64,000 bases of DNA from a virus (Duplodnaviria > Caudoviricetes). Both the position numbers and the translations under genes were made by a program. This document shows, piece after piece, positions 1,793-64,000 of the stretch. Under the pieces are notes generated by a model. The model was not told the origin of the DNA. It worked only from the letters and a program-made list of their open reading frames with translations, and did not search any database. The stretch is taken from IMG/VR virus record IMGVR_UViG_3300025000_000057. The stretch is one strand, 5' to 3'. Position 1 is the first letter of the stretch, and each line of letters begins with the position of its first letter.

Positions 1793-1824
1793 TAACAAAG
1801 GGGCCGTAAAAGGCCCCTTTGTTA
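1793..1824 (-). terminator. Intrinsic terminator after tail tube gene
   Basis: 13-bp stem TAACAAAGGGGCC/GGCCCCTTTGTTA with a 6-nt loop, directly downstream of the 1839 stop. Confidence 0.75.
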
Positions 1825-2654: not shown

Positions 2655-2690
2655 TCACCAATACGAGTACTTATTTACTCGTATTGGTGA
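2655..2690. promoter_or_regulatory. 15-bp perfect hairpin between sheath and tube genes (possible mRNA processing/stabiliser)
   Basis: TCACCAATACGAGTA-CTTATT-TACTCGTATTGGTGA; no U-tract; just upstream of the tube RBS. Confidence 0.55.
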
Positions 2691-10513: not shown

Positions 10514-13500
10514 CTAATCGTCAATTTTAATCTGGGTAATACTTTCAATCCATTGTTCTCTGGTACCTTTTGTTTTATCGAAGTGATGATCTGCATAATA
10601 CTTCAATAGCTTACTTAAAAGGATGTCGGAACTTATCTTACCTTTTGGTTTATCATCTTTGGCCTTGACTATCATCTCAGCATTGGTGAATTTACATCCC
10701 TCTAGGCTTATACCGGAAAGGTAACCAGTTGTATTGACCGGCCCACTAAATACAAACTTTATATTATGTTGACCCATTAGTACCCATTGTCTTACTTGAT
10801 TTACGGTACCGGTAGTTAATACTTTGATATCATCAATATAGAGATCTATCTTAGCTTCGATATTATCTGTATATGTGGAAAAGGCTAGGTAGCCATCTAC
10901 CCAGTTTGTTAGATTTAATGTAAGTGACGATTCACTTTGATTGGTATATATAATCGAGTTGCTGTTAATACTCCATCCGTTGTTTACAACTTCCCCAGGC
11001 TCTCCGATATAACCATGATATTCTTTTGATAGCCATTGTTCGTAATGTCTATTTATATAGAAATTAGAATCATAAAGAGCTATAGCTTCAGCATACCAGC
11101 GAACCATCTGGAATGCTTTCCTATACTCTCTACTACCATAAAGAGTTTCTTCGATTATACCGTAAAGATTCTCAAGTAAATGCATTAAGGTTGCTTGAGA
11201 TGTCATTAACATATATTTCTGCCAATGAACCCTAGTTAATTGTCTAATCAAGAGCATCATATCTACTAATACAGAAGCTTTGATAACTAACTTTTTCATA
11301 TTATGATCTTCTCGACCAACTTCTGAAAATTCCGGTAATGGATGCTCGATACATTTAGCAACTTTAACCATTGGAGTATTGACAGGTGATAAAGCCTGAT
11401 ATATTTCTCCTGTATTGTGATTTAGGATTTCAGCAATATCTTTAGCATAGTAATAATCTTTATCAGGAATTTGAAGTTTATCAAGTCCCTTACCATGAAG
11501 TTTCCATATTTCAAGCCATGTATCATCCCAATGACCCTGTAATTCTTCTGTTATAATACCAAGACGATTAACCTTAACATCTCCAACGGGAGGTAAATCT
11601 TCTTTAATTAAAGAAGATTGAATTGACTTTGCAACCGTCTCCGGTTTGGTTATACCGATTTCCTCACTTTTCGTTCCGGAAATATCATACTGTTTATGAC
11701 CAATATTGGGAATTTTAAGCATATTTAAAACTTTACTATCAAATATGTATCCAAGTAGTTTGTAGACCCCCTGGAGTATATTAGATAATGTTATTGGTAT
11801 AGACTTGTATACACCCAGAGGCCATTCATTAAAGATATTACCTCTTTCGGATACCGAGTTGCCAATAACTTGAGTGAATACTTTAACCATTTTATTGAGT
11901 TTCACTGTAATACCTGGAGTAGATATAACGACACCTTCATTAGTTTTTGGCAAACCTACTTTGACTTTATCTTCTAAACTATCGTAACCAACCTTGTCAG
12001 TATCGATTAATTGTCCAATAACAACTTCAACAGGACTTTTATTAGTAATCTCGATTTTATCTAATTCTACATTCCCAGAAACCTTGGTTAATATTTCATT
12101 ATCATCGTCAATTAAAACATTAATATTTTCAGTATTAACCAATAGTTCCTTGTTTATCTCCATAGGATTGTCAGACTTTAAAGCTGTCTTGATATCATCT
12201 GAAGCTGAAAGATTTCTTACAAACTTATATAAATAAAGAAGTGTTTTGCCAATAAACGTTATGAAATCTGATTTAACTGCATCTTGTGCATTAGTAAGTT
12301 TATTAAATAGTCTTTTATCTTTATGGGATATTATCTCTGACATACTAATAACACGACCGTCATTTTTCTTACAAAAGATATCTACAACCTCAACAAGTCC
12401 GTTATATTCGTTCTCCTCGGTTCGTATCCCGTTAATAGTAGAATTAGGATGGTTTATCTTTCTAGATATCCTAAAACCATGAATATCGCTTAACTGCTGT
12501 ATTTTATTAATTATTTTCCAGAGTACAAATCGTTTTTCTACATGTGATTCATGAAATTGTTTTCTAGTTCCGCAAGTCTCATTTTTAATATTAATAGTTC
12601 CATAAATATCTCTTTTCCCCTGGATATCTGGATATGTATAAGTCATTCTATATTTGTGTTTCCTGCTTAACATTAATTCTTTGGCAATAAGAATGTTAGT
12701 AATATTCTTATTGCCAAAGATTCTCATCAAATCTACATTTCCATTAAGTCTTTTTCTAAACATAATCTTAATTACTTTATCCGAAGCAGCAGATCTGTTT
12801 TTACGAATACTGTCAAGATCGTTTGCTACGTCTAGTAACTTAGACGTATTCTTTAATTGGATATCTGGTTTTATTTCGAATGCTGACATGGGTTTTATGA
12901 AGCCATTATTCTCTAAAACCAGTTCTCCAAATGTCATCCATTTCTCAAGTATAATATCCTGATTGTTATATATAAACTCCTTAATAATTTTGATAGAAGA
13001 TATTGATTTAATAACAGAACTATTTATATTTATTCTAATTGAATATATCGTATCGTCTATATTGCCATTGTTGAAACATTGTGTAGCATATATTTCGAGA
13101 TTATCAGTACCAATTTTAGGAGATTTGAGATTATTGGGTTCTTTAATAATTATCCCATTTATCCAGGATAACGTTCCAATAGTTCCTTTTGTCGTAAGAC
13201 CTTTAAGAGATATTCTTCTAATACCACTAAAGGCTTTACTAATATATTGACCAAATCTCTCAGCAATCCCTACATACATTTTATCCTGAAATGCTATAGC
13301 TTGACTTTCTCTATCAGCGGCTACATCATTACTCAGATTTACACCAACGTTATCTAGATGACCAGTATATGGCCGGTCTATAACGAACATAGATGTATAA
13401 ATACTATCACCTAGGTTAGATTGATTTATTGTAAGTCCCGCCCTATCGGTTATACCAAATGGTAAACTATCAGATATGCCATTACTTGTAGGAATAATTC

Positions 13501-27213: not shown

Positions 27214-27242
27214 CGTCTAAACCACCTCTATTTATATTACTT

Positions 27243-27284
27243 GTTACAAGAACAGGGTCGACCAGTCGACCCTGTTCTTGTAAC
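27243..27284 (-). terminator. 20-bp perfect hairpin after the fibre gene (terminator/processing site)
   Basis: GTTACAAGAACAGGGTCGAC-CA-GTCGACCCTGTTCTTGTAAC. Confidence 0.65.
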
Positions 27285-35195: not shown

Positions 35196-35491
35196 TACTA
35201 TCTACTCCTTATCTAAAGTCAGACCTCCTCAGGCCCTCGCGCTTTACGTTCTCTATCAAACTTACCAGCTACTTCAAGATAAGGCTATCAGAAGATAATT
35301 ATCAGATATCTATCCTGACAGCCTAAACCCGTTGCCAAGCAAGCTCGATGTTTTTGTCACAGCAATACGCCGTCGACCCTACCATTTTCCTTTAACTTTA
35401 GATAGGTAATTTGTAACAGTATCTAAAGGTAGATATTACTTGGTTCTAAATAGATTGTGTAACCTCTCAGTATATATTTGTACAATGTAAC

Positions 35492-35520
35492 TTGTCAAAT
35501 GTAACATTAGGGTATATAAT
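35492..35520 (+). promoter_or_regulatory. sigmaA/sigma70-type promoter
   Basis: TTGTCA-N17-TATAAT upstream of RBS GAGGAGGAG and ATG 35558. Confidence 0.8.
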
Positions 35521-38416: not shown

Positions 38417-38450
38417 TTCTCTACGGATACGTTTTCATATCCGTAGAGAA
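38417..38450. promoter_or_regulatory. 13-bp perfect intergenic hairpin without U-tract
   Basis: TTCTCTACGGATA-N8-TATCCGTAGAGAA just before RBS AAAGGAGG. Confidence 0.5.
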
Positions 38451-38757: not shown

Positions 38758-39303
38758 GTGATTTCGTTGAAACAGGTCTATTTAACCAGGTCTCGTGTCA
38801 GCGCTAATATTCCCCTTAAAGCGACTGGCGTTGCGGTAAGTATAGAAGAGATGAATAAGAAATTCGAGAATGTTAAAGGATTGCCCGTTAAAGACGCTTA
38901 TCAAGTTGGCTGGGGTCAATCCGATTCAGTGGCCCCGTCTGTAGGTACTATATTGGACAAGTTTATTACGCCTGACGGTCACACATGGTTAATATACGAG
39001 GTCGATTTAGAAAAGTTAAGTTACAAAGCTCGTAGAGATATCACAACCCGTAAAGCTGGCGCTTTTGCTGCCTTTGAATACTCAAGTGAAGAAGGCTATA
39101 AAGATGTAATGTATGCTATTATCTATCAAAGAGAACCAGACAGGTATCCCTGGGAGGCGGAAAATACAACCCATGTTTGCCTAACAGGAATCAAAGATGA
39201 TGAATTAGAAATGCTTCGTCAAGTATTCGATCCTCAATCAATGGAATGTATAGCTCTTTACGTAACAAAGCAGAATCAACCTAACGTAGCGATCGTTTCT
39301 TAG
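38758..39303 (+). CDS. Hypothetical protein
   Basis: 181 aa; likely start TTG at 38767 after GAGGTG. Confidence 0.7.
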   Translation: MISLKQVYLTRSRVSANIPLKATGVAVSIEEMNKKFENVKGLPVKDAYQVGWGQSDSVAPSVGTILDKFITPDGHTWLIYEVDLEKLSYKARRDITTRKAGAFAAFEYSSEEGYKDVMYAIIYQREPDRYPWEAENTTHVCLTGIKDDELEMLRQVFDPQSMECIALYVTKQNQPNVAIVS

Positions 39304-39346
39304 TGATACTACACTAAGAAACGATCCTTAAGGAAGTGATACCAAC

Positions 39347-42796: not shown

Positions 42797-42832
42797 TGAT
42801 TAGAGGACGTTATCATTAACGTCCTCTAATCA
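42797..42832. promoter_or_regulatory. 16-bp perfect intergenic hairpin
   Basis: TGATTAGAGGACGTTA-TCAT-TAACGTCCTCTAATCA. Confidence 0.55.
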
Positions 42833-43289: not shown

Positions 43290-43323
43290 AAAACAAGACC
43301 TCGTGCAAACGAGGTCTTGTTTT
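43290..43323 (+). terminator. Intrinsic (bidirectional-type) terminator
   Basis: AAAACAAGACCTCGT-GCAA-ACGAGGTCTTGTTTT, GNRA loop, T-tract. Confidence 0.85.
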
Positions 43324-45273: not shown

Positions 45274-45311
45274 CCCTTGTCGAACTCTTACCAGTAAGAG
45301 TTCGACAAGGG
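45274..45311. promoter_or_regulatory. 18-bp perfect intergenic hairpin
   Basis: CCCTTGTCGAACTCTTAC-CA-GTAAGAGTTCGACAAGGG. Confidence 0.6.
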
Positions 45312-50477: not shown

Positions 50478-50515
50478 GTTCACTTCTATTGTTGAGATAA
50501 ACAATAGAAGTGAAC
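50478..50515. promoter_or_regulatory. TGTT-N6-AACA hairpin H1
   Basis: GTTCACTTCTATTGTT-GAGATA-AACAATAGAAGTGAAC, followed by ATATAT and an RBS. Confidence 0.7.
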
Positions 50516-50532
50516 ATATATAGGAGGCAGAT

Positions 50533-50814
50533 ATGAAAGACTTATACTGGCTATGCCTATGTGGTACTTGCTTATATTATACCTGTGTTTTATCACGCAA
50601 TATGGGCAATGTGAGTGATATACCTTGCGAGGATTGCCTAACTTATAAAGATAATAGTAGGTATCATGAATTTAAGAAACCTATACCATGGCATAAGTGT
50701 ATAACATGTAAGAATCTTTCAGAGTTTATTAATCATTCTGGCAATTGTTATACATGTATAAAAGCCTATATGAATTCAGATACACTGGTTTATTATAAAG
50801 GAGGTATACTATGA
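50533..50814 (+). CDS. 9-Cys paralog P7
   Basis: CGTCLYYTC...PCEDC...YHEFKKPIPWHKCITC...CYTC. Confidence 0.8.
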   Translation: MKDLYWLCLCGTCLYYTCVLSRNMGNVSDIPCEDCLTYKDNSRYHEFKKPIPWHKCITCKNLSEFINHSGNCYTCIKAYMNSDTLVYYKGGIL

Positions 50815-51605
50815 AGAGTTTACCATGGGTTGATTTCACACGTCGTAACGATCCGGCGCATCCATTCGGGCCCGTACTGCTGCAAAAGAGTCTTGATAGG
50901 TACGGTGCATATGTTTTCTGTTTCTGGACTAAGAATCCTGGTACTGTTGCTGATTTATATCGTAATCAGATAAGTCAAATGATGTCCAAAGATACACTCG
51001 TACTGGCGCAGGTGACACTTAATAATTATTCCAGTATAATGGAGCCGGGTGTTCCGAGTTTTAATACACGCTATCAAGGATTGGATAGATTACTTCGCCT
51101 AATTGGAGGGCCTGGGCATATTAAGCTCAGAATCGATCCTATTATCTTAGGTTATACTACTCCTAACATGATCCGCACCTCCCTAGAGGCTGGACGTAGT
51201 TTGGGTATACGCAGGTTTGTTATGAACTTCTTAGTACCTAGCTATAAAGGCGTAGGTAATATACTTATTCATAGAGGTTTGATACGACCTAATGACCTTA
51301 CTCCATCTCAAGAACGTATCCTTAGTACGGCTCGCTTTGTTTCCGAAGAGGCACAACGAGTAGGAGCTATTCTACAGGTATGTGCCGAAAGTAACTGGAT
51401 TGGTCAACATGTATCTGGCATTCAAATAGCATCATGTTCAGATCCGACTTGGGCTACACAGGTTAGACCCGAGTTAACCGGTATCTTTAAAGCAAATCCA
51501 TCCCGTAAAGACTGTGGTTGTTGTTACTCGGCCGACTGGGGAGTGTATGCTTCACGAGGTGGATATGTTTGCCCAGGAGGTTGTTTATACTGTTACGCTC
51601 AGTAA
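50811..51605 (+). CDS. DUF1848-like (spore-photoproduct-lyase-related, C-terminal CxxxCxxC) protein
   Basis: TRRNDP...FWTKNP...T.NNY...EPGVP...RIDPI...CAE...SC...R..CGC..S.D.G.Y...CPGGCLYCYA. Confidence 0.7.
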   Translation: MKSLPWVDFTRRNDPAHPFGPVLLQKSLDRYGAYVFCFWTKNPGTVADLYRNQISQMMSKDTLVLAQVTLNNYSSIMEPGVPSFNTRYQGLDRLLRLIGGPGHIKLRIDPIILGYTTPNMIRTSLEAGRSLGIRRFVMNFLVPSYKGVGNILIHRGLIRPNDLTPSQERILSTARFVSEEAQRVGAILQVCAESNWIGQHVSGIQIASCSDPTWATQVRPELTGIFKANPSRKDCGCCYSADWGVYASRGGYVCPGGCLYCYAQ

Positions 51606-51614
51606 CACCAACAG

Positions 51615-51654
51615 TTATTATACCCACTGTTGACTGCAACAGTGGGTATAATAA
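51615..51654. promoter_or_regulatory. TGTT-N6-AACA hairpin H2
   Basis: TTATTATACCCACTGTT-GACTGC-AACAGTGGGTATAATAA, followed by TATATA and an RBS. Confidence 0.7.
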
Positions 51655-51682
51655 TATATAGAGTTTAAAGGAGGTCGTTATA

Positions 51683-51994
51683 ATGGCTAATAATACTGCC
51701 ATGGATAAAACAATTGCCGTACTAACTGCGCTTCGGGCTGGTCAGGAAGTTCTTATTGGTGACTACATTTTCGTTTATGATGAAGAAGATGATAAAATTG
51801 GTATTCTAGTTGATGTACATGATGCATCTAAGGGTGAGGATTATCAAGCAATACACTTCTTAGCTGACAACTTTAGTATCCAATGGCTGATGAATGCCTG
51901 TAATAAGATGTCTAATGGAGATCTCCTTATATTGACAGCAACAAAGGTACTTACTTCACTGAATAAGAGGAGGGATACCAAATGCGCGAAGTAA
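51683..51994 (+). CDS. Hypothetical protein
   Basis: AAAGGAGG RBS, 103 aa. Confidence 0.75.
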   Translation: MANNTAMDKTIAVLTALRAGQEVLIGDYIFVYDEEDDKIGILVDVHDASKGEDYQAIHFLADNFSIQWLMNACNKMSNGDLLILTATKVLTSLNKRRDTKCAK

Positions 51995-53655
51995 CCGGTG
52001 ATATATTTGAAATTGGTCGTTACGGTATTATCTGTGTTACCACTAATGGCGTCGTTAAGAAGGACGGCGCCTTGGTTATGGGTAAGGGAGTTGCTCTTAA
52101 CTTTGCTAATAAGTTTCCCACTATGGCGGAAAAACTTGGTCAACTAGTTAAAGCAAACGGTAACCATGTATACAGTCTCGGTTCGTTAGTACCAATAGAC
52201 GATCCGAGTATAAGTTATACTGTTGTTAGCTTCCCCACTAAGGCACATTGGCGCGACAACTCTACTGTTGCACTGGTTACTAAATCGGCTGCTGAGTTAA
52301 AAGCACTTGCTGATTCCCAAGCTTGGCCCGGGCCTATATACCTACCGGTTCCCGGATGTGGTAATGGAGGTCTTAACTGGGGAGAATTGAAACAGTTATT
52401 GCCATCTTATCTTGATGATAGATTTGTAATTGTTCACTATAGTAACTCTGTGCAACAAAATACACAACCCGCTGCTCAGCCGGGTACCCAAGTAACTACT
52501 CAGACTACCACTCTTGAATGTAGCTCTCAAGGAGATAATCGGTTCAGCGCATTTGGCGCACATGTAAATGCGCTTGGCAATAAGATAGAGATGCTCTATC
52601 AAGAGGCTAAACGTTTTACCGATGACCCAAATGAGGGCCCGACCGATTGGAGAAATGCCAAGGGCCGGCCGGTAGTGGCCGTAAGTCTTAATGGTAAGAG
52701 GTTTGGGCCTGAATATCTTACACCGTGGTACTGGTATCTTTGGACTCGGTATTTCCTTGAGAATCCAGATTTATTACAATACGCTCGTCAATTTAATACT
52801 TTTACGGATATGTTCCGTGGTAAGAGTACGAACTGCCAGGCAGATGTAATTGCATTCATGGCTAAGAATGGCCTTAATCCAATAATGGCTAAACCAGCAT
52901 ATCAAGAGATTGATCAATTATTCAATCTTAATTACTTATTTAAGAATCCTACACCGGAGCCGGGTGCTACTCCTGTATATATGTTAAATAGAACTATCAA
53001 AGAGGGATGTAGTGATATTCTCACATGTATGGTTACCGGTCACCGCCCGAATGGTATTAATGGGAAAGCCGGCTGGAACTTTGGAGATTCTCGTAATCAA
53101 AAGTTAATCACATACTTATCCACAGTTGTTAATAAGATGGCTATGGAGAATGGTACCCGGATATTCATAGAGGGAATAGCAGCTGGCGGAGATTTGTTAT
53201 TTACCAGAGCTGTACTTGATGTGAGTCATTTGCATCCGGAGTATAACCTGCAGCTTTGGAACTACATCCCGTATCCATGTGCGCCGGATAGACTTAAGTA
53301 TCAATGGAAAGCAGTTCTTGATAGCGCATTAAACCATCCAGGTGAGACAGTAATATGTAGTCCTGACCCTGTTGGTAAAGATGATAAAGAGCAGCGCATT
53401 GATGCAGCTAAGAAACTCTTCTATCGTAATGAGTGTATGGTGCGTACGTTACCCGTTCTTCCGAATGTCGGTATGATTATTGCCATATATTCAGGTTTAC
53501 AACCCGGGTTATATGCTATCGAGCAAATCGCTCAGCTAATGGATCCAAAGACCAAGGGTGGTACAGCTAATACACTCTTGACAGCTGTTAAGAGATGGAA
53601 AGAGGATAAGAACTTTCAACCTAAGATTCTCGTTGTCAATCCTAACAACTTCTAA
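51982..53655 (+). CDS. Macrodomain - NADAR-like - SLOG(YspA-like) triple fusion
   Basis: GDIF...CVTTNG.....LVMG.GVAL...FPTK.HW...PGCGNGGLNW (macro); LECSS.GD.RFSAF...IE..YQ.AK.F...DWR.AKG (NADAR-like); VTGHRP...GIAAGGDLLF...F.RNECMV...Y.G...GGTANT (SLOG). Confidence 0.7.
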   Translation: MREVTGDIFEIGRYGIICVTTNGVVKKDGALVMGKGVALNFANKFPTMAEKLGQLVKANGNHVYSLGSLVPIDDPSISYTVVSFPTKAHWRDNSTVALVTKSAAELKALADSQAWPGPIYLPVPGCGNGGLNWGELKQLLPSYLDDRFVIVHYSNSVQQNTQPAAQPGTQVTTQTTTLECSSQGDNRFSAFGAHVNALGNKIEMLYQEAKRFTDDPNEGPTDWRNAKGRPVVAVSLNGKRFGPEYLTPWYWYLWTRYFLENPDLLQYARQFNTFTDMFRGKSTNCQADVIAFMAKNGLNPIMAKPAYQEIDQLFNLNYLFKNPTPEPGATPVYMLNRTIKEGCSDILTCMVTGHRPNGINGKAGWNFGDSRNQKLITYLSTVVNKMAMENGTRIFIEGIAAGGDLLFTRAVLDVSHLHPEYNLQLWNYIPYPCAPDRLKYQWKAVLDSALNHPGETVICSPDPVGKDDKEQRIDAAKKLFYRNECMVRTLPVLPNVGMIIAIYSGLQPGLYAIEQIAQLMDPKTKGGTANTLLTAVKRWKEDKNFQPKILVVNPNNF

Positions 53656-53666
53656 GGAGGCATAAC

Positions 53667-54569
53667 ATGACTATATTAAGAAAACCACACGGTTCAGCTC
53701 AGTTATTAGCTGAGAATCGTGCTAGTCTAGTGATTGAACAGATGACAATAACCCCGCTATTTCCGGCGGGGTTTACCTTTACCGGTACTTCCGGCGCAGC
53801 TGAAGTAATCGCTCATGGGCAATATGTCATGGGCAACGAAGAGCAGACTAAGATTACAGTACCGACATATATGGTTCGTACCGGAGATGGTAGAGAGGTA
53901 GCTTGTCGTACCCGCCACATCTTGAGTAATCTCAGTGGTTGTGAGATAGAGCATTTACCAGAGCGAGAGCATATTGCACTTGTTGAATTTGATAAATGTC
54001 AATTCTTAATAGACCCTTTCGGCAAAGGTACACAGATAGACGACCCTACATTTCATGTGTTGTATACGGACAGTTACGGTTGGCCTATACATGATGTTGT
54101 ATTAAGAGCTGTAGCTCGTTTGGTACATTTCATAGATGATATACCACCATTAGGTAGTCCATTTATTCGTATAGCTAATAGTACTAATTGTGCAAACTGC
54201 GGAGCTATAAGAAGATTAAGTACTACCGATGCCGTAATGGGTGATGTTGCAGCCAATATGTACAGTACAGGCACTTGGGATAAGTCAGGCCCGAATAAGA
54301 ATAATATACATTGCTCATGGCTAGGCAACCCGAACCCGGAGTGGGAGTTAATTTGTCAAACTAAAAACAGAGCTTTCTCTAGGGATGAGAAGAGACCTGA
54401 AGCGTGGCTTAATGATATAAATCATAATTGTGCTAAGTTTTACAACGATGATTCACCTGTGAATTTCGCTGGACTTGTCATAGAACGGGATGATAAAACC
54501 GGCTGTACTTATATTGAGGTGCCTGGTTGGGATATTGAAATGTACGAGAATTATACACGTAAGGCGTAG
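53667..54569 (+). CDS. Hypothetical protein with Cys-rich C-terminal half
   Basis: AAGGAGG RBS; NCANC...HCSW...C...HNC. Confidence 0.75.
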   Translation: MTILRKPHGSAQLLAENRASLVIEQMTITPLFPAGFTFTGTSGAAEVIAHGQYVMGNEEQTKITVPTYMVRTGDGREVACRTRHILSNLSGCEIEHLPEREHIALVEFDKCQFLIDPFGKGTQIDDPTFHVLYTDSYGWPIHDVVLRAVARLVHFIDDIPPLGSPFIRIANSTNCANCGAIRRLSTTDAVMGDVAANMYSTGTWDKSGPNKNNIHCSWLGNPNPEWELICQTKNRAFSRDEKRPEAWLNDINHNCAKFYNDDSPVNFAGLVIERDDKTGCTYIEVPGWDIEMYENYTRKA

Positions 54570-54571
54570 AG

Positions 54572-54605
54572 TTAAGGCCGCTGTTGAAACAAACAGCGGC
54601 CTTAA
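54572..54605. promoter_or_regulatory. TGTT-N6-AACA hairpin H3
   Basis: TTAAGGCCGCTGTT-GAAACA-AACAGCGGCCTTAA, followed by TATATA and an RBS. Confidence 0.7.
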
Positions 54606-54633
54606 TATATAAATATAAAAGGAGGACTTTAAA

Positions 54634-57093
54634 ATGGCACTTAGTAGTAGAAGAAGAGGTTCCGGCGTTATAATAGAGAGAACCGATGAAGAAAGAAACA
54701 GAAAAGACACGGAAGGTATTTCAATCGTGTTAAACAGTAATCACTCTGTGTATACCACAAACCGTCGGGTAGACGAGAATTGGATTAAAGTACGTCCGTT
54801 CTTTCCCGAGGATTTACCGGTTGACACCTGGGCTAAAGATGGCGCTTGTTGCAGCCTGTTACGCAGCTCTAGAATTATTGAGAACCCTGAGCATTTAGAG
54901 AAATGGATGCAAGAAGGTGCTTACTCTAAGCTCGAACACCGTATTAAGAAAGAAATCCAGCAAGCTCAATACGCTGGTGTAATATCCGAACACGACTATA
55001 TTCTGATGGAAGATAGTATGGGTACCGGAGATACATTTGATATATTAGTAGCTCATACTTGTTTGAATAAAGCTCGTTATGCTTTAAATACAGTCTTACT
55101 TAAGAAAGAGGCTGAACGTAAAGCAGCAGAGGCTAAGAAAGAAGCAGAGACTAATGCGCCTATCGTAACGAATTATCATAAGCTAAATCCAATTGCTACT
55201 CCTAAAGTTACCTATATAGATTTGCCTAAGTATTGCGATCCGGTCTTAACTGATAACTACTTACACAGACGTTACATGGCTCACCTAGATAGCCTTGGCA
55301 CCTGGAAAGGTAACGTTCTTGATGAATTACCGCCACTCGAATGGGGTAACAATCCGGCCCCTAAAATGTATTCAGAGACTAAAGGTGGATATCGTAACCG
55401 CACCAACCTTAGAGGTCTTGTGCTTGAGCATCCTAATATGTTCATCTTCGAGGCTTACAAAATCGTTCAGATGAAAGACGATCAAATCGGTGTAAGCGGA
55501 ACAGAATCGATCTATAAGAGTGATGGTAGTGTTAAGAGAAAACGTAGAATAGTTCCTATCGAAGAGTTATCTTACGAAGGAACTCCTATACTTGATTATA
55601 TAAGAAGTGTAGCTCCTACCTCGATTCAAGATAGTAGCCGTCATAACGAAGAGCTGTTTACTAAGAGTGAAGAGTGTCCTATTACCGAACGTGATGATGT
55701 TTATGTACATGCTGGCTTTGGTTTTGTAACACTCGTACGTATGACTAACAATGGTAAAGTAATCGTTCGTCGACTGGTTGATGATGAACGCGACTTAGTT
55801 GGTACTAAGTTTGACATCTATATGGAAATGCATTCTCAGAATGCTGTCAATCAGTTACCTGGAGAAATGGGTGTCCATATTGTAGAGTATTCAGAAATCA
55901 TACCTATTAAGAACTTGGTAGAGATCGGTATGAATAATAAAGAACTGTATCAGGTCTGTAATGTAAGACTTGCCACAAATGATAAAGAAGCTACAATTAT
56001 GGCCCGCCAGCCGGCTAAAGGTCTTGACGAGTTTGTTTATATTGTTAGCAACTTACCACTCAGACCAAAGCTCGATCTTTACAGCAAGGTACCAGTCCGT
56101 GATATCAATGGAGATTTGATGCTTCATAATGGTCAACCTATCTTAATCCATCCTCAAAAGAGTAAGATTATCAAAAAGTATGATGCTACTCTTAACATCA
56201 CAGTTGAACAAAGAGTACAAGCTTGGGAGCCACCAAGCGTCCTGGTTATAGGAGAAGAGAGTGGCAAACTAAGCGTAGTACCAGCTGCTTGGTTATATAA
56301 ACTCACCGGAAATACCAATTATATACCATTCTCAACAACCCGTAGTTACGATTCCGCTACTAAACGAATGGTTCCAATTACTGTTCGTTATCCAGAAATA
56401 CCTAGTGTATCTGCATGGGAGGATAGAAACGTATTTGACCATCACTTGTTTACTATGAAGATGAGAGCTGCAGCTAAAGGTAAACCCGAGCCTGGTAGTT
56501 TCTCAATCTTACCAACTCCAGCACCTGGTGAAGATTATCGCACAGTTCTTCCTATCCGTGAGAAATTCGTAAACTTCGAGCCATACAGATGGGTAGACCC
56601 CAAGAAACAAGTAAACATTCTTGACAGCCATATAGACGGTTATAATCCGGAAGATACTGGTTGGGATACCGAATGGCAATTTAGAGCACACGAGCCGGGC
56701 GACTGGATAGCAGAAGCTAGTATAGCTGAGGTATTCGCAGTAGCCGCTCCTAGTCATGAGAGGATCATGGCTAACACAAACCAAGAGGCATGGTACTGGA
56801 CTTACAATGCTTGCACAGCAAGACAGGCTGGTATCGATAATCTGGCGCTCAATTGGACAACTCCTGCGAGTAATGGTATAATTGCTACAGTGACATGTAA
56901 CATTGATAGCCATCCTATAACCGCTAATATACAGGTCGTTAAACCTGGTGAGATTGGTTTTGACGCAGGCCTTACTAATGAGCAAACAGCATTTATCTTA
57001 AGATTCGTAAGTTATAAACATGCAGAGGCTCGCGCAATGAGATTACAGCAACAAGATACAGCACAAGTTGCGGTGTCGTTAAAAGACCGTTAA
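54634..57093 (+). CDS. Large hypothetical protein (819 aa)
   Basis: AAAAGGAGG RBS; no domain recognised. Confidence 0.8.
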   Translation: MALSSRRRGSGVIIERTDEERNRKDTEGISIVLNSNHSVYTTNRRVDENWIKVRPFFPEDLPVDTWAKDGACCSLLRSSRIIENPEHLEKWMQEGAYSKLEHRIKKEIQQAQYAGVISEHDYILMEDSMGTGDTFDILVAHTCLNKARYALNTVLLKKEAERKAAEAKKEAETNAPIVTNYHKLNPIATPKVTYIDLPKYCDPVLTDNYLHRRYMAHLDSLGTWKGNVLDELPPLEWGNNPAPKMYSETKGGYRNRTNLRGLVLEHPNMFIFEAYKIVQMKDDQIGVSGTESIYKSDGSVKRKRRIVPIEELSYEGTPILDYIRSVAPTSIQDSSRHNEELFTKSEECPITERDDVYVHAGFGFVTLVRMTNNGKVIVRRLVDDERDLVGTKFDIYMEMHSQNAVNQLPGEMGVHIVEYSEIIPIKNLVEIGMNNKELYQVCNVRLATNDKEATIMARQPAKGLDEFVYIVSNLPLRPKLDLYSKVPVRDINGDLMLHNGQPILIHPQKSKIIKKYDATLNITVEQRVQAWEPPSVLVIGEESGKLSVVPAAWLYKLTGNTNYIPFSTTRSYDSATKRMVPITVRYPEIPSVSAWEDRNVFDHHLFTMKMRAAAKGKPEPGSFSILPTPAPGEDYRTVLPIREKFVNFEPYRWVDPKKQVNILDSHIDGYNPEDTGWDTEWQFRAHEPGDWIAEASIAEVFAVAAPSHERIMANTNQEAWYWTYNACTARQAGIDNLALNWTTPASNGIIATVTCNIDSHPITANIQVVKPGEIGFDAGLTNEQTAFILRFVSYKHAEARAMRLQQQDTAQVAVSLKDR

Positions 57094-57121
57094 GGTTATA
57101 GCAATGCGGGAGGAATTAGAA

Positions 57122-57355
57122 ATGAAAAAATATGCAGAGGAAATTGAAGGTTATATATTTGTGGGTAATACGCCCACTGGAGGAGATTTATCAGAATTAA
57201 AAAATATAAAATATATAATTGGAGATCTTGCTTTAGATATTCATAGGAAAAAGTTAGATAAGAATTATATGTTACCTTTGTTTGTTAAAAAAGAAAGTTA
57301 TAACGAATATAACAGAATAATGGAGGATCAAATGAGAAAAATTCGTGAAAGATAG
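57122..57355 (+). CDS. Small hypothetical protein
   Basis: ATG 57122 after GGGAGGA; AT-rich. Confidence 0.65.
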   Translation: MKKYAEEIEGYIFVGNTPTGGDLSELKNIKYIIGDLALDIHRKKLDKNYMLPLFVKKESYNEYNRIMEDQMRKIRER

Positions 57356-57362
57356 TAAGTCA

Positions 57363-57400
57363 TTCTTATCAGCCTGTTAATAAAAACAGGCTGATAAGAA
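57363..57400. promoter_or_regulatory. TGTT-N6-AACA hairpin H4
   Basis: TTCTTATCAGCCTGTT-AATAAA-AACAGGCTGATAAGAA, followed by GTATATAAT and an RBS. Confidence 0.7.
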
Positions 57401-57420
57401 GTATATAATGGTGGTGAAAC

Positions 57421-58251
57421 ATGGCTAAGGAAGCTAACTTGAATAACGTTACGCAACAGATTATTGATGCACTTAAAGTTCACGGATTTAAGATACAGTA
57501 TTATAAGAGTTACTCTACTAATAGCTTTTATCTAAAGTTAGATTATGGAGTATCTCATAGTATAAGGATAAGTGACCATAAAGGGAAGAGTCATCTTAAC
57601 TATCGTTTTAATATCGGGCCTCATATCACCGATTACGAAGTTCGTAAGACACCTCCACCGGATTACTGGCCAATGTACTTCTATCCAATAACACAGTTTA
57701 AGCGCATGATTCAGCAGATAGTTCAGGTACGGGATAATGTAATAAAGAAATACGGGAAGGAAAGGTATAAAACTCTTATGCAGACAAATCTAGAGAAGAA
57801 CCAGCATAAGAGAGGCTTTTGGGCTCAGAGTAAAGAACTATGGGAGGGAGATATCATGACCGGTAAGGGTAAATTCATTACATGTCATATGAGTCAGCTA
57901 TCAAGAATTGATGCTGATATTAAAATTGCTGGTACTATTAAACAGATTAACAGTTCCGATATTCTATGGATTCCGCAGCTAGGCCCGGATGAAGAGTTAT
58001 TTAACATGTTTAAGGATTGGAAAGAGGCTGGTAAGTGGCCCGAAATGTGGCCTGAATATCTAGTTCGCTTTCAAAAGTTAATGACCGGCCCGGTTATGCT
58101 GCCGTATTTAAACCGGTTAAAGCTAAGGCTAAGCGAGGGTAAGAAGATTGCTTTTGGTTGTTTTTGCGCTAAGAAAGATGTTCTGTTCTGCCATCGCAGT
58201 ATAGTAGCTGACGATATGAAAAATAGTGGCTTTGAAATTATATTAGGCTAG
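57421..58251 (+). CDS. Two-domain protein with C-terminal DUF488-like domain
   Basis: N-terminal YLKLDYG...SIRISDH.G; C-terminal W.PQLGP..ELF..FK.W...W.EY..RF...L...L...GCFC......CHRSIVA. Confidence 0.65.
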   Translation: MAKEANLNNVTQQIIDALKVHGFKIQYYKSYSTNSFYLKLDYGVSHSIRISDHKGKSHLNYRFNIGPHITDYEVRKTPPPDYWPMYFYPITQFKRMIQQIVQVRDNVIKKYGKERYKTLMQTNLEKNQHKRGFWAQSKELWEGDIMTGKGKFITCHMSQLSRIDADIKIAGTIKQINSSDILWIPQLGPDEELFNMFKDWKEAGKWPEMWPEYLVRFQKLMTGPVMLPYLNRLKLRLSEGKKIAFGCFCAKKDVLFCHRSIVADDMKNSGFEIILG

Positions 58252-58253
58252 TC

Positions 58254-58287
58254 TTTGTTTGCCTGTTAATAAAAACAGGCAAACAAA
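58254..58287. promoter_or_regulatory. TGTT-N6-AACA hairpin H5
   Basis: TTTGTTTGCCTGTT-AATAAA-AACAGGCAAACAAA, followed by TGTATATT and an RBS. Confidence 0.7.
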
Positions 58288-58313
58288 ACTTGTATATTAG
58301 GGAGGTAGCGTTT

Positions 58314-58745
58314 ATGGATAGATTCATGTATTTTAATAAGCTCAGTGCTATGGTTGCAATATCTAAAGAAATGCCTAAAGTCGAAGTTCCGATTATGAGA
58401 TTTACAAATAGGGTGTATTCGACTAGTGAGATATATAACAGTGAGTGGAGAATAGAGTCTACAAAAGCTTCCAGGTTAACTCTAATAGATCCTACTGGAG
58501 AAAGACGCAGGATCAAATATGGTATATACCACCAGGCTATAAATTACAGCTCCTGGAGTGAATACGATATTGCACTTGCAGATGCAAAGAGAAATGGGAT
58601 TGTATCGGCTAATCGTACCTATATTGGCAAATTTCTTGGCTATTTGCCAGAAGTGTCATCGGTACCGTTATATATATTGGGAAGGGAGAATAAACATGAC
58701 AGGTGTCAACTTGGAACTATACACAACGAAAGACGAGTTAATTAA
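58314..58745 (+). CDS. Hypothetical protein
   Basis: ATG 58314 after GGGAGGT. Confidence 0.7.
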   Translation: MDRFMYFNKLSAMVAISKEMPKVEVPIMRFTNRVYSTSEIYNSEWRIESTKASRLTLIDPTGERRRIKYGIYHQAINYSSWSEYDIALADAKRNGIVSANRTYIGKFLGYLPEVSSVPLYILGRENKHDRCQLGTIHNERRVN

Positions 58746-60877: not shown

Positions 60878-60986
60878 GCCTGGTGGGGTTAGGCCAGGTG
60901 CGGCAGCCTTTAAGGCTGCGTCCCTAAAAGGGAGTTAACTTTGCTAAGTGCCTGGGTCTCCCCCGGGAGGCCCGTTGTTTCTTTTT
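60878..60986 (+). ncRNA. Candidate small structured RNA ending in a terminator (unidentified)
   Basis: GC-rich island with 4 consecutive hairpins; the last (GGGTCTCC/GGAGGCCC) is followed by a T-tract. Confidence 0.4.
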
Positions 60987-63848: not shown

Positions 63849-63868
63849 TACTTTGCCATACCCCTTTG

Positions 63869-63897
63869 TTGACAATTAACATGTAGCATGTTACAAT
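63869..63897 (+). promoter_or_regulatory. Consensus sigmaA promoter with extended -10, enclosed by a 14-bp inverted repeat
   Basis: TTGACA-N17-TACAAT with TG; ACCCCTTTGTTGAC(63860-73)/GTCAACAAAGGGGT(63912-25). Confidence 0.85.
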
Positions 63898-63932
63898 GAC
63901 AACTAACAATAGTCAACAAAGGGGTGACACAA

Positions 63933-64000
63933 ATGGCAAAGTTGATATTAAGAGCTACTGAGAAAAACCGCCTCTTTGCTCAACACTTAGTTGCACATCA
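63933..64000 (+). CDS. Start of a gene running off the window
   Basis: AAAGGGGTGA RBS + ATG GCA AAG...; open to the window end. Confidence 0.65.
   Translation, partial: MAKLILRATEKNRLFAQHLVAH

Follow-up and report, generated by a model that had tools for sequence, protein, structure and literature searches.

The window analysed here is a 64,000-nucleotide stretch of DNA from a virus of the Caudoviricetes (Duplodnaviria), IMG/VR record IMGVR_UViG_3300025000_000057. Its minus-strand part encodes portal, terminase, head and sheath proteins, and its plus-strand part contains many small genes. Among the latter, between positions 50,478 and 58,287, five intergenic gaps contain perfectly paired hairpins with a common tip (H1–H5), which are the subject of this analysis; the genes beside them include those for a DUF1848 protein, a Macro-NADAR fusion and a DUF488 fusion. 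The window is 99.8–100% identical to part of a huge phage, GCA_902725955.1 (contig CACUYJ010000001.1, 219,483 bp), and also matches contigs from groundwater and sediment metagenomes. No DNA similarity to known phages was detected in either the near or the distant search mode. The ribosome-binding sites are of the strong AGGAGG type and, together with sporulation-type signals, suggest that the host is probably a Firmicute. Gene look-ups extended the sequence to 129,868 nt, spanning window coordinates −8161 to 121706 and making up 59% of the genome; statements about the 130 kb read refer to this extended sequence.

The five hairpins and the elements next to them are as follows.

H1, 50478–50515, plus strand: 16-bp perfect stem, loop GAGATA, tip TTGTT/AACAA; 25 nt past the stop of the sixth 9-Cys microprotein gene; TATATA box at 50517–50522, abutting the Shine–Dalgarno site GGAGG at 50523–50527; start codon at 50533.
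H2, 51615–51654, plus strand: 18-bp perfect stem, loop ACTG, tip CTGTTG/CAACAG; 9 nt past the stop of the DUF1848 gene; TATATA box at 51655–51660; Shine–Dalgarno site AGGAGG at 51669–51674; start codon at 51683.
H3, 54572–54605, plus strand: 14-bp perfect stem, loop GAAACA, tip CTGTT/AACAG; 2 nt past the stop of a 300-aa gene; TATATA box at 54606–54611; TATAAATA at 54608–54615; Shine–Dalgarno site AGGAGG at 54620–54625; start codon of the 819-aa gene at 54634.
H4, 57363–57400, plus strand: 16-bp perfect stem, loop AATAAA, tip CTGTT/AACAG; 7 nt past the stop of an 83-aa gene; TATATA box at 57402–57407; Shine–Dalgarno site GGTGGTG at 57410–57416; start codon of the DUF488 fusion gene at 57421.
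H5, 58254–58287, plus strand: 14-bp perfect stem, loop AATAAA, tip CTGTT/AACAG; 2 nt past the stop of the DUF488 gene; TATATT box at 58293–58298; Shine–Dalgarno site GGGAGG at 58300–58305; start codon at 58314.

The gaps that contain the hairpins are 62–80 nt long and separate plus-strand genes; each hairpin begins 2–25 nt past a stop codon. The stem is followed at 0–5 nt by TATAT(A/T), then by the Shine–Dalgarno site and the start codon. The tip common to all five is (C/T)TGTT-N6-AACA(G/A), with loops of 6 nt except in H2, where the loop is 4 nt; read as TGTT-N6-AACA, H2 has 17 bp and one additional G–C pair. An initial annotation, made from the sequence of the window, had placed five perfect stems of 14–17 bp here; this extra pair extends the range to 14–18 bp. 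The distances from the first A of AACA to TATAT (17, 17, 14, 17 and 19 nt from H1 to H5) also agree with that annotation, which gave 14–19 nt, with 17 nt in three of five copies, and a ribosome-binding site after the box.

The hairpins alone fold at −18.7 to −25.7 kcal/mol, which matches the stable GC-containing hairpin of an intrinsic terminator; the complete intergenic stretches, folded as RNA, reach −20 to −31 kcal/mol (z = −4.2 to −7.6 versus shuffles). A U-tract is missing, as the initial annotation had noted: the tails contain 3–4 T in their first 8 nt, interspersed with A, and H5 is the sole one of the five to pass a lenient terminator scan.

Non-randomness and covariation

Both the tip and the structure are non-random. 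TGTT-N6-AACA occurs nine times in the window versus 1.35 expected, a count that was reached by none of 100 shuffles; the four occurrences other than H1–H5 lie inside genes and form no hairpin. Perfect hairpins of at least 12 bp number 15 in the window, versus a mean of 0.1 (range 0–1) over 20 Markov shuffles. In a gap-free alignment of the inner 14 pairs of the five hairpins all 70 cells are paired, a result that shuffled or slid controls come nowhere near. Ten of the 14 stem pairs vary on both sides and none varies on one side only, while the four tip pairs are constant; the fifth tip pair is C–G in four of the five hairpins, and the loops and outer arms are variable. The description of a fixed apex on copy-specific yet complementary arms is thereby upheld. 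The view that the elements are neither plain U-tract terminators nor plain operators is also supported.

H4 and H5 have 20 identical nucleotides, as had been noticed earlier, and their modules are homologous, aligning from stop codon to start codon. The arms differ by three substitutions and one 2-bp indel, every change being mirrored on the opposite arm. Judged from this alignment, H4 and H5 are copies of one module that kept perfect pairing.

Natural variation is unusable for testing the stems, since the assemblies compared are 99.8–100% identical here. Besides the reference contig there are four: L119 (99.8%, with two gaps), L120 and L121 (100%) and L122 (five base differences); a sediment run contains identical fragments only. 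No strains with or without a hairpin-flanked cassette were found among the assemblies compared. The DUF488 protein encoded between H4 and H5 (57421–58251) is a two-domain fusion, the parts of which occur elsewhere as separate proteins of about 135–145 aa (residues 1–140) and about 125 aa (residues 150–276). No full-length relative was found among 1.8 billion representatives; as all relatives are single-domain proteins, there is no orthologous cassette to compare.

The wider family and its downstream box

The 130 kb read contains about 25 perfect hairpins of 12–19 bp outside genes, with energies near −22 kcal/mol. H1–H5 are one local sub-family of at least 25 such stable, perfectly paired hairpins following stop codons. 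An upstream stop codon can be assigned for 19 of them, and 14 of these 19 begin within 16 nt of the stop, several overlapping it; many end 3–16 nt ahead of a Shine–Dalgarno site. The hairpins divide groups of overlapping or abutting genes. T-rich tails are present in a few members (43290, 45274 and 1793), most having no U-tract. The pattern search beyond the window that the initial annotation had proposed finds TGTT-tipped hairpins at H1–H5 only; the tip is absent from all other family hairpins in the 130 kb read. Other tips are shared instead: CTGGTT/AACCAG by three hairpins (at about 65.1, 70.6 and 86.6 kb) and CCTT/AAGG by two (at 65.7 kb, with loop AATAAA, and at 103.4 kb, with loop GATAAA). 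Further members in the window, and an ordinary terminator, are listed below.

38417–38450, plus strand: family hairpin with another tip.
39291–39326, plus strand: family hairpin with another tip.
42797–42832, plus strand: family hairpin with another tip.
43290–43323, plus strand: family hairpin with another tip.
45274–45311, plus strand: family hairpin with another tip.
1793–1824, minus strand: family hairpin in the late region.
2655–2690, minus strand: late-region family hairpin that follows the tail-sheath gene; its sense loop is AAUAAG, and ACTATAAAGGAGG comes next.
27243–27284, minus strand: 19-bp family hairpin in the late region, with a TATAAATA box and a Shine–Dalgarno site downstream in the sense direction.
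60953–60986, plus strand: intrinsic terminator with a GC-rich 9-bp stem and a T-rich tail, the first canonical one downstream of H1–H5.

The terminator at 60953 indicates that the phage uses ordinary terminators where needed. Two long perfect hairpins of 15 and 17 bp (577–609 and 12678–12720) lie within late structural genes, unlike the rest of the family. The 13-mer AGTAATATAAATA stands after two unrelated hairpins, one in the late region of the window (27229–27241, minus strand) and one after the DNA polymerase III alpha gene (L130:21262–21274).

The family is directional. The sense-strand loops are A-rich, with 72 A versus 32 T (p about 1e-4 if an even split is expected, 0.004 if 55% is), and the TATA-type box is found solely downstream of the hairpin, including the minus-strand hairpins 2655 and 27243. 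Among 144 genes with a Shine–Dalgarno leader, TATA(A/T)(A/T) lies within 14 nt of the Shine–Dalgarno site in 9 of 15 hairpin-preceded genes versus 8 of 129 others (Fisher p = 1.5e-6). The box accompanies hairpins of any tip, so tip and box are no dedicated pair. The five hairpins, being one sub-family of the larger set, are not a self-standing signal. The asymmetry of loop and box tracks gene direction on both strands and therefore points to a role at the transcript level; a purely duplex or cruciform function would be strand-symmetric.

The box itself is probably no promoter, to judge from several sequence comparisons. A scan for sigma-70-type promoters gave a chance-level result (55 matches versus 53.3 expected), and among H1–H5 just H2 had a match, a weak one (9/12). 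A tip-to-box pair taken as −35 and −10 elements would need spacers of 16–21 bp, compared with the 16–18 bp of sigma-70/SigA promoters. The idea of a generic A/U-rich leader of ribosome sites was rejected, the box being rare before hairpin-less genes. A T4-like late promoter was likewise rejected for TATAAATA, which shows no sense-strand enrichment (16 versus 11) and often abuts the Shine–Dalgarno site.

Relatives extend the picture. Two phages found through the sheath protein (46% and 44% identity; GC contents of 53% and 58%) have unrelated GC-rich hairpins without a U-tract at the same post-sheath spot; different hairpins at the same place indicate that the position is conserved and the sequence is not. 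One of this pair (L131) also keeps a counterpart of the hairpin at 1793. In a third relative, G001 (IMGVR_UViG_3300001041_000012; 40% sheath identity, GC content 40%), two intergenic hairpins 1 kb apart (104720–104765 and 105770–105799) have 18 identical tip bases and different arms. A further record, G004 (IMGVR_UViG_3300033512_000345), contains an identical hairpin pair 330 nt apart (69131–69157 and 69458–69484), and another two of its hairpins have one loop in common. Two helicase-derived relatives (L127 and L128) proved to be unrelated high-GC phages and were set aside.

CTGTT-N6-AACAG is not enriched in five related phage records (0–2 matches each), and the 16-nt tip has chance-level matches only in IMG/VR. 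The 20-nt core of H4 and H5 matches four unrelated metagenome contigs; in two cases (L135:674–693 and L136:855–874) this 20-nt top caps ordinary terminators with a seven-T run. No Rfam 15 family was matched at its gathering score, the best being caiA with 31 bits versus a threshold of 55.5, and the other Rfam matches on the hairpins are chance matches to microRNA precursors.

Possible functions

The likeliest reading, held at about even odds, is that H1–H5 are intercistronic hairpins that form and protect mRNA ends, and not a new kind of promoter. Each hairpin would be a very stable stem-loop, non-terminating or weakly terminating, with an A/U-only tract behind it, lying after the stop codon that closes one tightly packed group of genes and ahead of the Shine–Dalgarno site of the next. 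It would be carried on long phage transcripts produced by the host polymerase and would become, or shield, the 3′ end of the upstream message. Weak attenuation at the A/U tract could generate that end, as could an RNase Y- or RNase III-like endonuclease cutting within the tract or stem; 3′-to-5′ exonucleases would then be stopped by the hairpin, and the next ribosome-binding site would stay single-stranded near the protected end. With protected ends and open ribosome sites, gene groups of one operon could differ in level. RNase III-like processing and attenuation, two of the options raised in the initial annotation, stay among the best candidates.

The shared tip fits local copying of a short hairpin core, the arms of which were later replaced or changed on both sides. 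The TGTT/AACA tip and the TATATA box would mark the five as copies of one intergenic module of about 65 nt, similar to a promoter-early stem-loop (PeSL) cassette, that would have spread locally while accessory genes were added. The outer arms may have been swapped or altered on both sides at once, possibly via template switching. Template switching in replication is a known route to such both-arm changes and would also account for the absence of wobble pairs. Neighbouring hairpins with other common tips, here and in G001 and G004, favour local copying over a regulon-wide recognition code; the regulon suggested by the initial annotation is thus weakened, though it keeps some probability.

Several observations weigh against a role in forming transcript ends. 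The typical substrate of bacterial RNase III is double-stranded RNA of about two turns, in many cases interrupted by an internal loop, and the helices of 14–18 bp, which have no such loop, are short for this enzyme; A/U-only tracts are poor terminator tails. No long stem contains a G–U (G–T) pair or a one-sided change. RNA selected for pairing alone would usually contain some of both, and stems that are free of wobble and change only on both sides fit a DNA-level constraint or generating process. The tip pairs are constant while the loops of H1–H3 differ, which plain descent and drift do not explain, so the tip may be read. The remaining 41% or so of the genome is unread, and no RNA runs containing this phage were found on looking.

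Among the alternatives, an unlikely one is that the hairpins are parts of composite insulator and promoter modules, as in PeSLs: the hairpin would dampen upstream transcription, and TATAT would be a −10-like box used by the host polymerase with a phage sigma factor, AACA perhaps serving as a −35-like element 13–15 nt upstream. Among the phage genes is one for an ECF-like sigma factor (L138:17760–18329), in which region 2 and a weak region 4 are recognisable, and ECF −35 elements typically include AAC. The box is strongly tied to the hairpins and always downstream of them, and the gaps between AACA and the box are 13, 13, 14, 13 and 15 nt if the AACA within the loop of H3 is used. A single −10-like element suffices for some phage sigma factors, such as tAATGTAtA of phiEco32 (PMC8948821), and the stem-loop of PeSLs overlies the promoter boxes or lies between them (PMC2839356). 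Transcription that began 7 nt past the box would, in H2 and H3, start just before the Shine–Dalgarno site, and at least two family members (at about 86.6 and 110.1 kb) precede extended −10-like promoters. In H1, H4 and H5, however, the Shine–Dalgarno sites, all well formed, lie 0–3 nt from the box, so that a start 6–8 nt past it would leave the ribosome site off the transcript. The pair of AACA and box precedes no other gene in the 130 kb read and occurs off hairpins at chance frequency, and the box recurs after hairpins whose tips are quite different, which argues that AACA is not its partner; the chance-level result of the sigma-70-type scan also speaks against promoters.

It is similarly doubtful that the CUGUU/AACAG tip is read by a phage factor that would switch five gene groups as a unit. 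Such a factor could be an RNA-binding regulator of translation or antitermination, or a DNA-binding protein specific for hairpins. In its RNA form a phage or host protein would recognise the tip as a translational repressor or antiterminator does, in the manner of T4 gp43, RegA or lambda N-boxB; in its DNA form the 14-bp palindrome would be bound in the duplex. The five downstream gene groups (DUF1848, Macro-NADAR, DUF488 and others), which are predicted to undo DNA or ADP-ribose modifications, would then be co-regulated in counter-defence. The four constant tip pairs, with the fifth C–G in four of five copies and loops and outer arms variable, speak for such recognition, and all five hairpins lie inside one 8-kb stretch ahead of genes with related predicted roles. 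T4 provides a precedent in hairpin operators with a conserved top beside the ribosome-binding site (PMC3014915).

The half-site centres of the palindrome are 10 bp apart, and four of five copies fit CTGT-N8-ACAG, H1 having TTGT. This consensus, the gamma-proteobacterial LexA box, may not be that of the host; the AGGAGG sites and sporulation-type signals point to a Firmicute, in which LexA boxes are different. The operators of cre, Rex, TnrA, Fur and 434 do not match the motif. Recognition of the tip is further disfavoured by the occurrence of the 14-bp motif outside long hairpins only at chance level, inside genes, by its lack of enrichment in the five related records, and by the sharing of other tips between neighbours here and in two relatives, which fits copying better. 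A duplex operator has no need of 14–18 perfect pairs, and no candidate binding protein was identified.

A role at the DNA level, in which the palindromes, extruded as cruciforms or folded within single-stranded DNA, would act as N4-like hairpin promoters, priming signals or recombination sites at cassette borders, is highly improbable: perfect complementarity without a G–T pair or a one-sided change would suit it, as would the position of the hairpins at the borders of accessory cassettes, with H4 and H5 forming a 20-nt direct repeat around a single gene, but the A-rich sense loops and the downstream-only box follow transcription on both strands, and the arms differ between copies, which confines homologous exchange to the tip. 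Extrusion is favoured by the AT-rich centre and by a GC clamp that is flanked by AT-rich bases. Genes for a phage RNA polymerase, an integron-type integrase or a RAYT-like protein are absent from the gene lists of the 130 kb read. The N4 comparison made in the initial annotation found no support in the 130 kb read. The promoters of the N4 virion RNA polymerase are likewise DNA hairpins with a sequence-specific top just upstream of the transcribed region; they have stems of 5–7 bp and loops of 3 nt and depend on a giant virion RNA polymerase, whereas the stems here are 14–18 bp, the loops are 4–6 nt, and the 130 kb contain no such gene.

Neighbouring features, known systems and significance

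The initial annotation had also pointed to a related motif overlapping the −35 element of a strong promoter at 63869. The spacing of this motif is N7, not N6, and it forms no hairpin tip, being instead part of the left arm of a 13-bp inverted repeat (63862–63874 with 63913–63925) that brackets the promoter (TTGACA, 17 nt, TACAAT, with TG). Within the left arm is the −35 element, and within the right arm the ribosome site that serves the gene beginning at 63934; read-through transcripts could therefore hide that ribosome site, and promoter-started ones would not. ATGTAAC/GTTACAT heptads overlie sigma-A-like promoters at 35480–35520 and 63878–63896 in the window and at about 86.6 and 110.1 kb (L130:4451–4500 and L138:8760–8800). 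Two family hairpins outside the window have such heptad-overlain promoters directly after them.

The leader of the first gene after H1 (50533 region; TATATAGGAGGCAG, 4 nt, ATG) nearly recurs at about 79.7 kb (TATAAATAGGAGGCAG, 3 nt, ATG), a sequence likeness that hints at translation-start modules being reused whole. The 819-aa protein encoded after H3 (54634–57093) has no detectable homologue in 5.8 billion proteins, Pfam, PHROGs or IMG/VR. The 83-aa gene (57120–57322), which separates H4 from the 819-aa gene, is matched in the same groundwater run by several diverged look-alike contigs (about 80–90% identity), indicating a family with other copies or hosts in that community.

The closest known counterparts are the PeSL cassettes of T4-type phages, which are likewise short intergenic composites of a stem-loop, an A/T-rich promoter-like element and a Shine–Dalgarno site (PMC2839356, PMC4122927). 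They too recur among the small accessory genes of plastic genome regions, where a single gene can have similar copies on either side, as the DUF488 gene has H4 and H5. PeSLs, however, have a full sigma-70 consensus and about 100 bp of conserved sequence, whereas in H1–H5 no sigma-70-type promoter is detectable and only the tip and the box are common. The copy-specific, perfectly paired arms and the probable Firmicute host are further differences, and no recombination between copies is seen among the near-identical assemblies.

The RNase III sites in the early mRNA of T7 and in that of Bacillus phage SP82 are also intercistronic hairpins of long early transcripts, located just before ribosome sites; like H1–H5 they are without a terminator tail and have features common between sites (PMC1935012, PMC4838370). 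The SP82 sites and most T7 sites contain internal loops and longer composite stems, whereas H1–H5 are uninterrupted helices of 14–18 bp.

In T4 and other phages, C(UUCG)G hairpins (Tuerk et al. 1988, as summarised in PMC8948821) likewise combine a fixed apex with variable complementary arms and are mostly intergenic; in that summary they are linked to mRNA stability and to reverse transcriptase stops. Their apex, as described there, is fixed by an unusually stable tetraloop, whereas in H1–H5 the loops vary, the four closing pairs are fixed and the stems are much longer.

The REP elements of enterobacteria are also intercistronic palindromes near stop codons, able to protect upstream mRNA and to set relative expression within an operon. 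They are conserved over their whole length, imperfect and mobilised by RAYT transposases, whereas conservation here is limited to the tip and the gene lists read contain no RAYT gene, so the hairpins are not REPs or REPINs. Nor are they integron attC sites, in which an imperfect hairpin with extrahelical bases has conserved core sites at its base; here the tip is conserved and the stems are perfect and bulge-free. The SAS/ESAS of Cluster K mycobacteriophages are conserved inverted-repeat motifs just upstream of many translation starts, their function being unexplained; their hosts and sequences differ from those of H1–H5.

Among the intergenic hairpin modules of large phages, what is unusual here is the combination of wobble-free stems that change on both sides, tips that are common locally and an A/U box linked to the hairpins. 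Should a factor that reads the tip exist, the tip would delimit a counter-defence regulon and be a structure-plus-sequence signal of a kind undescribed in Firmicutes phages. The perfect, wobble-free stems with tips shared only between neighbours provide a clean natural case for studying how hairpins are born and maintained, for instance by template switching. Huge uncultured phages are annotated almost solely at the protein level, and the division and tuning of their long gene arrays are unexplained. The genome described here displays a countable grammar of stop codon, hairpin of about −22 kcal/mol, A/U-only box and Shine–Dalgarno site, and such a grammar could predict expression units and cassette borders in related phages.

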